DNA of 64,000 bases from Pseudomonadota bacterium. Lineage in GTDB: Bacteria; Pseudomonadota; Gammaproteobacteria; UBA1113. Numbering within the stretch: the first letter of the stretch is position 1; every line of letters begins with the position of its first letter. The position numbers and the translations under genes are program-made. Below are positions 33,097-36,714 of the stretch, one piece after another. The stretch is taken from the NCBI GenBank assembly GCA_021781965.1, contig JAJXVU010000003.1, positions 15,880 to 79,879 of the forward strand, written 5' to 3'. The notes beneath the pieces are model-generated. The model was not told the origin of the DNA and searched no databases. It saw only the letters and a program-made list of their open reading frames with translations.

Positions 33097-34548
33097 GTGT
33101 ATAAATTTATCTCCGTTACACTGTTTATAACAGTAATGATACTACATATGAATGTATTATTCGCTGAGAAACAGAAAGCCCTTCTTATTCCAATTTATGA
33201 TTATCGCGTTAACCTAGATCCTGGGAAACAACAAGATACTTATTCCACTGGGATATCCAGACAAATTAATTGTCAGCTCATACGAGCATCTAACTCTTAT
33301 CCAATGCTAGAAGCCGCGAATTCGGTCAAATATCTTACACCGTGGAAGATTGCCATTACGTTAAAAAAAGGATTAACTTTTAGCAATAACCAACCTGTGA
33401 CTGCTTATGATGTCGTTGCCTCTTATGATTATTTAGAAAAACATCAAAACTATCTAAGCAATATTGCCTATTGGATTGAGAAAATGTATGCCACTTCTAA
33501 CAACGAGATTATTGTAGAACTGCATAATCCTGCATCTGAATTTATACAGATTACAGCATTAAATGATTTACCCATTTACCAGAAAGATTTTCTTGCTAAA
33601 GCTGAAAAACAACCCCAACTATGGAAATTTCCAGTCACCTGTGGCGGCTACAAAGTTATAAAGAATGATGCACATGAACTTGCATTGGCTCCTAGATTTA
33701 ATGGCTATCCAATTATCTACAAAAAAATGGGTGATATGCCCATTAAAGAATCGGAATACCAGAATTTTGATATCATTGATGATTATTTTATTGCTGCGAA
33801 TGAATCTCCACAAGGATTTAGAAAGGTACAGGTTTTTGCACCCTATCAAATATTTCTAGGTCTAAACTCACAAAAGCCACGTTGGCACAGTAAAGAGCAA
33901 CGGTGTAAATTTCTTGCTCAAATGCAAGCTGATACCGTGGTAGAATCCTATGGAGAAGAGGGGCAAAGAGCCAATGATTTATTCCCTGTGGGTGTAATAG
34001 GCTATAGAAACAACTATCAATTTATAGAGAAAATAAGGGAAAACTATCCACAGACTAATAAGAAAATAAAACTCAATGATTTTTGCCTTGCTTTTTTAAA
34101 GCTTTCTGTTCCAGTAGAGCACCATTCTAGCTATATTAAAATGGTGCGTAACGCAATAGATACTAAAAACTTTCATACAGAGCAAATTACAAAGGTCAAA
34201 GATTATACCAAACTCATAAAATCAAGCTGTGATGCAATGGCGATAGGCTTTCAAACCAATACGCTTGAAGGATATGACTTTCTGGTGTTGTTTGCCAAAA
34301 ATGGGAAGAATTTTACAGGACTTTACAATGAAGAAGTTTCAAATGCCTTGTTAAATAGCCAAAATTTAAATGATAACAAGGAAAAAGCCAGACAATATCA
34401 ACGCATAGCCGATATCGTTCGGGATGAATGTATTGCCATCCCAATCGTTACAATCCCCATGGAAACTTTCTTTATCAAAGATTCATTAAAAGCACCCGAT
34501 ATTAGTAAATCAGCGTTTGAATCTTATTATCTTGGAGCGATAACTTAA
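33097..34548 (+). CDS. periplasmic solute-binding protein, family 5 (oligopeptide/oligosaccharide-type SBP), secreted
   Basis: Sec signal peptide. The segment ITLKKGLTFSNNQPVTAYDVVASY matches the SBP_bac_5 signature region. No ABC permease or ATPase genes are nearby; the stop codon abuts the ATG of the sensor kinase. Confidence 0.55.
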   Translation: MYKFISVTLFITVMILHMNVLFAEKQKALLIPIYDYRVNLDPGKQQDTYSTGISRQINCQLIRASNSYPMLEAANSVKYLTPWKIAITLKKGLTFSNNQPVTAYDVVASYDYLEKHQNYLSNIAYWIEKMYATSNNEIIVELHNPASEFIQITALNDLPIYQKDFLAKAEKQPQLWKFPVTCGGYKVIKNDAHELALAPRFNGYPIIYKKMGDMPIKESEYQNFDIIDDYFIAANESPQGFRKVQVFAPYQIFLGLNSQKPRWHSKEQRCKFLAQMQADTVVESYGEEGQRANDLFPVGVIGYRNNYQFIEKIRENYPQTNKKIKLNDFCLAFLKLSVPVEHHSSYIKMVRNAIDTKNFHTEQITKVKDYTKLIKSSCDAMAIGFQTNTLEGYDFLVLFAKNGKNFTGLYNEEVSNALLNSQNLNDNKEKARQYQRIADIVRDECIAIPIVTIPMETFFIKDSLKAPDISKSAFESYYLGAIT

Positions 34549-36714
34549 ATGACACTTACAATAAGAAATCATACTCTTAAAAAATACATAGCCCAAACCT
34601 TATTGGGCGCTATTTCATTTGTTTTTTTAATTTCACTGATTGCGGGCATTTTTATTGAAAGGGATAATGCCAAGATGGAGCATATTGAAAAAATACACGA
34701 TACACATACAACGTTAATCTCAGTTCTTGCCCCAGAGCTCGCAATCTATAACATTATGGAGGTTCGTAAACTATTATCGCTCGCCTCATCTCATGATAAA
34801 TTTTTTGCTGTTATCGACAATAATAAAAACGTATATATGTCCGATTATGAAAATTTTGGTTCTATAAGAAAATTAATCTATAAAGCAGGTCGCGTTGACT
34901 GTCGCGTGCTGAATAAAGAAAAGAAAGACCTAGGTAAGAATGTATTTTTTTATTGCACTCCAATCTACTACTACAGCCAAGATACAGAAAGTAATGCTAA
35001 ACTAGGAGTGCTCATTAGTTATAGTAAACTTGATTTTGCTTTTCGGTCTTGGAAATTATTAATGCAATATCTACTGGCATTCTTTGTTATTTCTAGTTTA
35101 TTATTCATATTGTTAAGAAGAAATTTATACAAAAAATTGTTGTCTCCTTTAATTAAATTAGAAAGACAAATTTCTAAGCTAGATTCCACACGTCTGCAAA
35201 CAAATACCAACATTGGTGACATCGGTTGGGCTCCCATTGAAATACAGAAAATAAAAGAAGCTTTTGACCAATTGCTAAACTGTTTACACATCGAAAACAT
35301 GAAGATCCGTGAAACTGAGAAAAAAGCCACCTTAAGCCATTTAGCCGTACAAATTGCGCACGATATCCGCAGCCCGCTTGCAGCACTTGAAGTGATTGTG
35401 GTAGAAGCCAATAAGTTTCCAGAGCGAAAACGATTATTAATTAGGCATTCCATTAACAGGATCAATGATATTGCTAATAATTTATTAACGCAATATCGTT
35501 TAATTAACAAGTCCGGCAAAGAAGAAACCGAAAATAATCTAACTTCAGAATTATTATCTGCCTTGATGGATATGGTAATCTCCGAGAAACGGCTACAACT
35601 AAACCGTTCTAATATAAGAATCTCATTCGAAATTGATGAATCCGCACATGGCACCTGTGTTAACATCAATCCCAGCCTTTTCGAAAGAGGCTTGTCTAAT
35701 ATTTTAAATAATGCAATCGAATCCATTGTGGAACATGGAGAAATTAAGCTTTATTTAGGGGTTTCTGATGGAAATGCCATTATCAAAATAATTGACAATG
35801 GCTGTGGCATTCCAGAACATCTGTTACCCTTACTATTAAAGGGGGGCACCAGCCACGGTAAAAAGAATGGTTTCGGCCTAGGGCTATCATCTGCAGTCAG
35901 CAATATCCAATCATGGAATGGCACATTCACCATTGAGTCCAAAAAAAATCAAGGCACCACTGTAAATATCCTCCTGCCCTTGGCAAAATCACCCCCTTGG
36001 TTTGCAGAGCGCATCTTCTTTAATAAAAATAATCACTTTGTTGTCGTAGTGGATGATGAAGAGTCTGTACATCAAATTTGGAATAACCGTTTTGAAAGCC
36101 TATCTACGCTATTTGATTTTAAAATGATTCATTTAAACACACCCACGGAATTGATGAGTTGGTGCAAAATGAACGATAATGCATCTGTCTTATTTCTGGT
36201 TGACTATCAGTTTGAGAACTCCGAAATAAATGGTATAGAACTGATTAAGCACTGCGGTATAGAAAGTTCTGCAATGCTAGTAACCAGTTGCTACGATTCT
36301 GATAGCTTACGGGATGAATGCTTACACTGCGGCGTTAAATTGCTACCAAAATTTTTCTCAGCCTACATCCCCATAGAGGTCACAGAAGCGATTAAAGTAG
36401 ATCTCATCTTTCTGGATGACGATTGTCTAATAACCAACACCTGGGAACTCGCGTGCGAATTGAAAAATATTAAAATCAACACATTTAACGAAGTTAACAC
36501 TTTCCTACAAGCAATCAGGAACTATGCAAAATCAACGCCGATTTATATAGACTCTGAATTGACTGATAACATAAAGGGTGAAGAAATCGCCAGAGATTTG
36601 TATATGATAGGTTATAGAGAACTTTATCTAGTAACAGGAAAATCCCACGATAGTTTTTCTGAATTATATTGGATTAAATCTATATCGGGTAAAAATTGTC
36701 CTTATATAAACTAA
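34549..36714 (+). CDS. hybrid sensor histidine kinase (2 TM + periplasmic domain, HisKA, HATPase_c, receiver domain + degenerate second receiver-like domain)
   Basis: TM helices at about aa 15-36 and 171-190. H-box LSHLAVQIAHDIRSPLAAL, N-box NILNNAIESI, G1 IIDNGCGIP, G2 GFGLGLSS. REC motifs VVVVDDEES and LFLVDYQF. Confidence 0.8.
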   Translation: MTLTIRNHTLKKYIAQTLLGAISFVFLISLIAGIFIERDNAKMEHIEKIHDTHTTLISVLAPELAIYNIMEVRKLLSLASSHDKFFAVIDNNKNVYMSDYENFGSIRKLIYKAGRVDCRVLNKEKKDLGKNVFFYCTPIYYYSQDTESNAKLGVLISYSKLDFAFRSWKLLMQYLLAFFVISSLLFILLRRNLYKKLLSPLIKLERQISKLDSTRLQTNTNIGDIGWAPIEIQKIKEAFDQLLNCLHIENMKIRETEKKATLSHLAVQIAHDIRSPLAALEVIVVEANKFPERKRLLIRHSINRINDIANNLLTQYRLINKSGKEETENNLTSELLSALMDMVISEKRLQLNRSNIRISFEIDESAHGTCVNINPSLFERGLSNILNNAIESIVEHGEIKLYLGVSDGNAIIKIIDNGCGIPEHLLPLLLKGGTSHGKKNGFGLGLSSAVSNIQSWNGTFTIESKKNQGTTVNILLPLAKSPPWFAERIFFNKNNHFVVVVDDEESVHQIWNNRFESLSTLFDFKMIHLNTPTELMSWCKMNDNASVLFLVDYQFENSEINGIELIKHCGIESSAMLVTSCYDSDSLRDECLHCGVKLLPKFFSAYIPIEVTEAIKVDLIFLDDDCLITNTWELACELKNIKINTFNEVNTFLQAIRNYAKSTPIYIDSELTDNIKGEEIARDLYMIGYRELYLVTGKSHDSFSELYWIKSISGKNCPYIN

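Follow-up and report, generated by a model that had tools for sequence, protein, structure and literature searches.

We have analyzed a 64-kb stretch of DNA (the window) on contig JAJXVU010000003.1, from an uncultured Legionella-like bacterium, in which the gene for a family-5 solute-binding protein (SBP) is placed back to back with that of a hybrid sensor histidine kinase. The SBP is predicted to be secreted and has no accompanying ATP-binding cassette (ABC) transporter, and is therefore most likely the ligand receptor of the membrane-bound kinase. We propose that it would function in signaling only, docking on the periplasmic loop of the kinase and driving a His-Asp-His-Asp phosphorelay to a response regulator resembling LqsR, and we place the probability of this reading at about 0.65. 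It is built on the gene order, the stop-start junction of the two genes, the families and folds of the component parts, the conserved pairing of SBP and kinase, and the absence of a transporter.

The earlier note on this DNA had described a two-gene pair. The coupling of SBP and kinase stands, but the real unit is a cassette of five genes on the same strand. In order these encode a 229-aa helix-turn-helix (HTH) regulator (HTH229), the SBP, the kinase, an 82-aa small His protein and a 316-aa LqsR-family response regulator, with spacers of 18, 0, 15 and 248 nt.

The solute-binding protein and its pairing with the kinase

The SBP gene (33097-34548, + strand) has a GTG start and encodes 483 aa, and the kinase gene (34549-36714, +) has an ATG start and encodes 721 aa. 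Inspection of the sequence confirmed both open reading frames (ORFs) and the junction between them as first reported. The junction is TAAATG (34546-34551, +), where the SBP stop codon (34546-34548) is followed with a 0-nt spacer by the kinase ATG at 34549, in the sequence ...ataactTAAATGaca.... A GGAG lies 11 nt 5' of the kinase ATG. A scan for promoters and terminators gave a signal no richer than in shuffled sequence, and we place no weight on it.

The SBP matches the Pfam family SBP_bac_5 (PF00496) at 43.2 bits (cut-off 32.4, E = 3.8e-11), over residues 86-193 only; the matched region takes in the segment ITLKKGLTFSNN.... A profile of the SBP clade matches solved family-5 SBPs over residues 76-449, best with HbpA2 (PDB 3tpa, E = 3.8e-11), followed by AppA, OppA and YliB. 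An AlphaFold model calculated with a 33-sequence clade alignment has pLDDT = 90.2 and pTM = 0.85; with four sequences pLDDT was 36. When the model was compared with the PDB using Foldseek, every one of the top 50 matches was a family-5 SBP (E = 7e-28 to 7e-23, TM-scores up to 0.80). These include HbpA2 (E = 7e-28) and DppA, OppA, MppA, GbpA and AapF (TM-scores of 0.75-0.80), and sequence identity to the structural matches is 12-19%. Classification by both profile and structure thus upholds the original assignment to family 5, and the SBP has a genuine family-5 (cluster C) fold. The structure of Vibrio cholerae CBP (1zty) matched the clade profile with E = 1e-3 over residues 66-200 only, corresponding to the N-terminal ~135 residues, and CBP structures were not among the top 50 PDB matches of the model.

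A Sec signal had also been noted, and this too is borne out. The predicted signal peptide occupies residues 1-23 (33097-33165, +; MYKFISVTLFITVMILHMNVLFA), with cleavage before EKQ at an LFA/E site, and there is a hydropathy peak at residues 3-24. Homologs share an MYK N-terminus, which supports the GTG start. Signal-like N-termini are present in 31/33 members of the clade, and a lipobox-like pattern in 1/33. Every one of the 33 aligned members has the same four cysteines (C59, C182, C270 and C445); together with two invariant cysteines in the kinase loop these fit a periplasmic location.

Relatives of the SBP are few. A word-indexed search of 5.8 billion proteins returned 4 close relatives only, and the same kind of search using the 33-sequence clade alignment returned only 5 proteins, with no taxonomic breadth. 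An exhaustive profile search of 1.84 billion representatives gave 45 proteins with E < 1e-30. In that search full-length members of the clade scored 197-380 bits, and ordinary family-5 SBPs all scored below 90 bits. Members looked up by name are each a 'hypothetical protein', from Legionellales or gammaproteobacterial metagenome-assembled genomes. A tblastn search of plasmids with the SBP found only a 20%-identical transporter SBP of Rhizobium. Judged by these scores, the SBP belongs to a rare clade that is set apart from transport SBPs. One residue may bear on the ligand. We have placed Asn388 using a GW..D motif, in which we take D408 of DppA and D419 of OppA to bind the peptide alpha-amino group. 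In the alignment with 3tpa, Asn388 aligns with this amine-binding Asp, and Asn is present in 25/33 clade members. We regard this as a weak hint only.

To compare loci we gathered relatives by exact look-up of homologs, by a scan of GTDB genomes, by a metagenome scan with the clade alignment and by a plasmid search, and annotated them by phmmer and clustering; individual loci are designated L001 and so on. Sequence 3' of the SBP gene was available for 24 independent loci, and a kinase gene is found there in 21 (16/19 seeded with the SBP and 5/5 seeded with the kinase). In all 20 testable loci the N-terminus of the kinase is homologous to that of the window kinase; at L018 phmmer matched the cytoplasmic core only. 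Among the 21 paired loci, 19 have the kinase start at -29 to +15 nt relative to the SBP stop, often as an ATGA overlap. This order, with overlapping or abutting codons, is kept down to ~25% identity, and the sensor domain of the window kinase is found only beside this SBP clade. A GDSL lipase gene lies between the two genes at L013, and at L021 (5200-12676) they are separated by a second SBP paralog, a methyltransferase and an M32 carboxypeptidase. At L004 (4249-6696), from the same organism as L003, the SBP gene is intact and follows a 64-aa remnant of HTH229, and a toxin-antitoxin pair (MqsA/RelE-type) stands where the kinase would be expected. The cassette seems to be degraded here.

No permease gene adjoins the SBP gene in any of the 24 independent loci. 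A search for Walker A plus LSGGQ motifs found only LptB in the window and a single ABC-like ATPase ORF at L025, 2.7 kb away. For the window itself we scanned with Pfam all ORFs of at least 120 aa, setting aside those nested within longer ones on the other strand or in another frame. No ABC importer was found in the 64 kb, where the sole ABC ATPase is LptB, in agreement with the earlier claim that no permease or ATPase genes are nearby. The ORF concerned (23739-24470) was considered as a cognate ATPase for the SBP and rejected; we identify it as LptB because it is located within a kdsD-kdsC-lptC-lptA-lptB run.

The genes 5' of the SBP gene differ between subclades. In most relatives there is a hexapeptide-repeat transferase (20 loci), often following a MatE-type membrane protein (11 loci). 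The codons of the MatE and hexapeptide genes overlap into the SBP-kinase pair at L007 (3402-6989), L008 (3293-7016), L011, L015, L018 and others. The subclade of the window, L001 and L002 has an HTH gene in place of the transferase, and the MatE and hexapeptide genes are missing from the window. In the relatives these genes could make and export a signal, or could be a regulated output. In place of the transferase, an S9 (DPP-IV-like) peptidase is encoded directly 5' of the SBP at L006 (1369-3630), L016 (6799-9144), L020 (7696-9963) and L027 (546-2813). These peptidases, and the interleaved genes of L021, hint at a peptide-derived ligand.

The kinase and the other proteins of the cassette

The kinase matches Pfam HATPase_c with 62.9 bits, has AtoS/KinD-like NCBIfam matches at residues 252-480, and by profile matches KinB in the PDB (3d36) with E = 2.9e-22. 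Its dimerization and histidine phosphotransfer (DHp) and catalytic ATPase core comprises residues 255-480 (35311-35988, +), with the putative phosphorylation site His271 (codon 35359-35361) in the sequence AHDIRSPL. The periplasmic sensor domain (residues 38-169; 34660-35055, +) lies between hydrophobic segments identified by hydropathy as TM1 (residues ~16-37) and TM2 (residues ~170-190). The loop measures ~132 aa, close to the ~135 aa between two transmembrane helices given previously. In an alignment of 18 N-terminal sequences P62, C118 and C136 are invariant, and the motifs HxTLSxLIxPSLxISD and VIDNxGxIxxPDY are conserved. A profile made from these 18 sequences gave only noise against Pfam and the PDB, with no assignment as Cache, PDC, 4HB or 2CSK_N.

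The C-terminal part of the kinase contains two tandem receiver-like domains. Domain 1 (36037-36366, +) has DD502/503, D552, T579 and a conserved Lys, and domain 2 (36397-36711, +) has DDD623-625, D668, T696 and K715. The Pfam Response_reg score for domain 1 is 15.6 bits, below threshold. In an 11-sequence alignment, however, both motif sets are conserved and the equivalents of D552 and D668 are invariant, and PF00072 is present in the precomputed annotation of several homologs. The description of the kinase as hybrid is therefore sustained. The ~470 cytoplasmic residues belong to a large family associated with many sensors, including PAS, 7TMR-DISM and Y_Y_Y, which makes the core a modular one.

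A perfect 6-bp GC-rich hairpin (GCCCAA-ACCTTA-TTGGGC, 34591-34608) is located 43 nt into the kinase ORF. It was flagged by the terminator scan on both strands, lacks a proper T-tract and probably arises by chance.

The gene for HTH229 (32389-33078, +) ends 18 nt 5' of the SBP gene. Its product gives weak Pfam matches to HTH_3/HTH_19 (N-terminal, XRE-type) and Peptidase_S24, all below threshold, and its C-terminal domain is diverged S24/LexA-CI-like. The position of the catalytic Lys appears by eye to be occupied by Arg, and self-cleavage is therefore doubtful. Homologs occur in the same position at L001 and L002, nearby at L007 and L020, and on the plasmid pLELO (E = 1e-27).

The small His protein (36730-36978, +) is encoded 3' of the kinase. 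It has an invariant His10 in the HisKA H-box-like motif KFKHVVKTPLSTI and no Pfam match. Profile-profile comparison using hhalign with the DHp region of the kinase gave a probability of 92.5% and E = 4.8e-7. Homologous or comparable small ORFs are found 3' of the kinase at L001, L002, L033 and L034, on pLELO and on a plasmid of L. lytica, and at L007 a 244-aa protein with a HisKA match (26.6 bits) takes its place. We propose that the 82-aa protein is a stand-alone DHp-like phosphotransfer protein, and not a canonical histidine phosphotransfer (Hpt) protein.

The regulator gene (37227-38177, +) encodes a protein with a Pfam Response_reg match of 40.5 bits, whose receiver contains an insertion of ~50 aa. 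Its receiver residues are D24/D25, the phospho-acceptor D113, T139 and K158, and these are followed by an LqsR-type C-terminal domain. It aligns end to end with PDB 6sy9 ('Response regulator', 361 aa), with residues 7-310 against 23-328 (E = 7.2e-34, 27% identity over 300 columns). D113 aligns with chain residue 128 of 6sy9. Allowing for a tag of 20 residues this becomes D108, the phospho-acceptor of LqsR (PMC3376566). LqsR-like regulators of Legionella plasmids, including the lqsR homologs of PMC8023197, match with E = 4e-29 to 6e-33. On these comparisons we assign the protein as a full-length LqsR-family response regulator. LqsR is the prototype of this regulator family, in which the C-terminal domain does not bind DNA and resembles a degenerate GGDEF fold, and members have been rewired to other quorum-sensing systems such as that of Ralstonia PhcX (PMC10653808). 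An LqsR-like regulator is encoded within 8 kb in 11 surveyed loci, and also adjoins the kinase at L032.

Neither an lqsA-like class I/II aminotransferase (Aminotran_1_2) nor an LqsS-like multi-pass kinase was found in the 64-kb window, the only aminotransferase being class III. A class I/II aminotransferase located 3' of the kinase at L022 was considered as a CqsA/LqsA-like synthase and rejected, since it is Kbl (2-amino-3-ketobutyrate CoA ligase, E = 3e-116).

Apparent exchange of the input module and alternative readings

The plasmid pLELO of L. pneumophila Lorraine (NC_018141.1, L036 1581-7521) carries a related cassette with a similar gene order, and near-identical plasmids are present in L. 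anisa, L. sainthelensi, L. longbeachae and Legionella sp. PC997. The cluster comprises the HTH229 homolog, an alpha/beta hydrolase, a binding protein, a kinase, a 75-aa protein and an LqsR-like regulator. The kinase shares the cytoplasmic core of the window kinase (E = 1.5e-96), and the regulator matches with E = 4e-29. The 75-aa protein has no phmmer match; by inspection it has a His-box-like motif KLKHD. The binding protein, whose gene overlaps that of the kinase, is a 363-aa type-I protein (Peripla_BP_6-like) and not family 5, and the periplasmic domain of the kinase is unrelated to that in the window. At L034 (1036-4600) a kinase sharing this core is encoded after a 371-aa type I binding protein (ANF_receptor-like) and before an 80-aa His-box protein. 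The N-terminus of the L034 kinase differs from those of both the window and pLELO, giving this chassis a third input module. The L. lytica plasmid (L035 5222-8411) encodes a kinase, small protein and regulator, beside which no binding protein has been annotated. In the literature searched we found the cassette system nowhere described; only the LqsR homolog of the plasmid cassette is noted there (PMC8023197).

While the chassis stays constant, the binding protein and the periplasmic domain of the kinase are thus replaced as a pair. Their joint replacement is the strongest indirect evidence available that they work as one input unit. With the pairing in 21/24 loci and the absence of an adjoining permease or ATPase, it gives strong backing to the earlier proposal that the pair is a sensory module and not part of a transporter.

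We can suggest how the system might function. The SBP would be exported by the Sec pathway and capture a small periplasmic ligand, acting as a receptor and not as a component of transport. Docking of the SBP on the ~132-aa periplasmic domain would then shift the balance between the kinase and phosphatase activities. The phosphoryl group is likely to pass from His271 of the kinase to D552 and/or D668, thence to His10 of the 82-aa protein and finally to D113 of the regulator. Lacking a DNA-binding domain, the LqsR-family regulator presumably acts through dimerization or protein-protein contacts as LqsR does, and HTH229 is a likely transcriptional partner or autoregulator. The contact, the order of phosphotransfer, the class of ligand and the output are the inferred elements of this scheme. 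It is speculation that the ligand is a modified peptide or amino-acid derivative, as the peptidases, the acyltransferase and the change from Asp to Asn hint.

A number of observations weigh against a signaling-only receptor linked to LqsR-type output. The putative contact of SBP and kinase is deduced from gene context and sequence. Neither the small His protein nor either receiver domain reaches a Pfam threshold; their roles were assigned from motifs and profile comparison. The structure 6sy9, titled only 'Response regulator', is taken to be L. pneumophila LqsR, in accord with the residue numbering. The SBP lacks a 3' kinase at three loci (L003/L004, L005 and L023, where the SBP gene is broken), so that it may have another partner in some genomes. 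Lastly, a distant Opp/Dpp-type permease may be encoded elsewhere in the genome, of which 64 kb are covered. If so the SBP could have a dual role, feeding such an importer as well as reporting to the kinase in the manner of CBP, ChvE of A. tumefaciens or GltB of P. aeruginosa. Family-5 SBPs are overwhelmingly components of transporters and all the closest structures are ABC-associated, pairs of the CBP-ChiS type join transport to signaling (PMC8050422), and the kinase-less L003/L004 and L005 would be accommodated. Yet we think a dual role unlikely. No family-5-type permease or ATPase adjoins the SBP in the 24 independent loci or occurs in the window, the clade is sharply apart from the transport SBPs, and the gene to which the SBP is translationally coupled is that of a kinase, not a permease.

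It is also rather improbable that the two proteins are co-transcribed but make no contact, with the kinase sensing directly and the SBP serving as a scavenger, a chaperone, or a sequestering accessory or output. A loop of ~132 aa is long enough to bind a ligand itself, membership of an operon is no proof of contact, and the peptidases, acyltransferase and MATE exporter of the relatives could form a metabolic operon merely under the control of the kinase. But the sensor domain is found only with this SBP clade and is replaced when the type of binding protein changes (in pLELO and L034), and the abutting or overlapping order has been maintained to ~25% identity. We give very little credence to the idea that the cassette is a decaying island, acquired horizontally and without current function in the window organism. 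None of its five ORFs is broken or truncated, all are collinear with their homologs at 55-66% identity, and catalytic and phospho-acceptor residues are conserved. These must be set against the lower GC content at 32-38 kb, the unrelated flanks of L001, the degraded L004 and the broken SBP gene of L023.

A more speculative suggestion, to which we attach a low probability, is that the cassette is the receiver arm of an undescribed quorum-sensing-like system of the Legionellales, with the window organism as an eavesdropping listener. The MATE/MOP exporter, hexapeptide acyltransferase and S9/M32 peptidases of the relatives might be responsible for synthesis and export of a signal, an N-acylated peptide or amino acid, and Asn in place of the amine-binding Asp would fit an N-blocked ligand. 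The window organism may then have kept only the HTH protein, SBP, kinase, His protein and regulator, by analogy with Legionella that have lqsR and lqsS but no lqsA.

Genomic setting and relation to known systems

The GC content is 0.35-0.36 across 32-38 kb of the window, compared with about 0.39-0.45 in adjoining stretches. The genes that flank the cassette are housekeeping ones: to one side PmbA, a dihydroorotase-like amidohydrolase and RNase T, and to the other AhpC, SodB, the class-III aminotransferase, Der and BamB. At L001 the same five-gene cassette is found in unrelated flanks (YceG, Tmk, guanylate cyclase and a GerE regulator). Taken with the dip in GC content this suggests mobility or horizontal acquisition.

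Some other genes of the window were observed. Just 5' of the cassette are ORFs of 576 aa (27787-29517, - strand) and 160 aa (31437-31919, -) without Pfam matches, of which exact or near-exact copies occur only in a few metagenome assemblies. A 1201-aa ORF (9729-13334, -) has no Pfam match at E <= 1e-8 and may encode a large protein specific to the lineage, perhaps an effector-like one. There is also a second response regulator that stands alone (276 aa; 4304-5134, -; Response_reg 48.8 bits); its C-terminal half is without family assignment, and no kinase gene adjoins it. An aspartate-kinase-like gene with AA_kinase and ACT domains (13443-14699, -) lies 19 kb from the SBP-kinase module, and within a few kb of the module in four relatives (L009, L015, L016 and L025). 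Synteny retained between related genomes is the probable explanation, rather than a functional link.

The earlier note had taken CBP-ChiS of V. cholerae as precedent, and the comparison is valid in part. There a family-5 (PF00496) SBP controls a hybrid kinase via its periplasmic region (PMC8050422; PMC12704726), and this is the sole example of a family-5 SBP with a kinase in a 2021 review (PMC8050422). However, the window SBP is not an ortholog of CBP, as the match to 1zty is weak and partial and CBP falls outside the top 50 folds. CBP serves its own ABC transporter (PMC8050422), whereas there is none at the window locus. The N-terminal ChiS construct used to model its periplasmic domain comprises residues 1-427 (PMC12704726), far larger than a loop of ~132 aa, which sets the two apart by description. 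ChiS binds DNA itself, while the window kinase ends in two receiver-like domains and would hand the signal to a separate regulator.

Other SBPs control kinases in signaling only, i.e. LuxP, TorT, XylFII, HptA and AioX (PMC8050422). In LuxP-LuxQ, TorT-TorS, AioX-AioS, XylFII-LytS and HptA-HptS a dedicated SBP gene likewise adjoins the kinase gene and a cognate transporter is lacking; two of the kinases, LuxQ and TorS, are hybrids at the head of multi-step relays (PMC8050422). These SBPs belong to the Peripla_BP_4/1 and phosphonate-bd families and not to family 5, and the sensor domains of their kinases are dCache-like, four-helix-bundle or sCache-like, whereas that of the window kinase matches no described family. 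By analogy LuxP-LuxQ, TorT-TorS and AioX-AioS nevertheless appear to be closer functional precedents than CBP-ChiS, which is analogous and not homologous. The SBPs of the Opp, Dpp and App importers (OppA, DppA, MppA and HbpA) have the same fold (TM-scores of 0.6-0.8). They differ in their low identity to the window SBP (12-19%), which has Asn388, four clade-specific invariant Cys residues and no permease or ATPase genes.

On the output side the Legionella Lqs system (LqsA-LqsR-LqsS/LqsT) and PhcX share an LqsR-family terminal regulator with a conserved phospho-acceptor Asp. In Lqs, phosphotransfer from LqsS or LqsT to LqsR is direct, whereas the input of the window cassette comprises an SBP, a hybrid kinase and a small His protein, with no lqsA- or lqsS-like gene linked to the regulator. 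The arrangement of a signaling SBP with a kinase is thus known, but the present pair belongs to none of those characterized. New features are the family-5 SBP clade without a transporter, an undescribed sensor domain, a miniature DHp-like relay protein and LqsR-family output.

Sensor kinases dependent on an SBP form a known but sparsely populated class. The present locus establishes a family-5 SBP clade whose members have seemingly turned into pure receptors, paired with an undescribed sensor domain and wired to a regulator of the family that provides the output of Legionella quorum sensing. Conjugative plasmids of clinical Legionella combine this chassis with another binding protein, and it therefore appears to be a modular and horizontally mobile sensing platform of the Legionellales. 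The ligands and outputs of this platform are open to testing in culturable strains that carry plasmids of the pLELO type.

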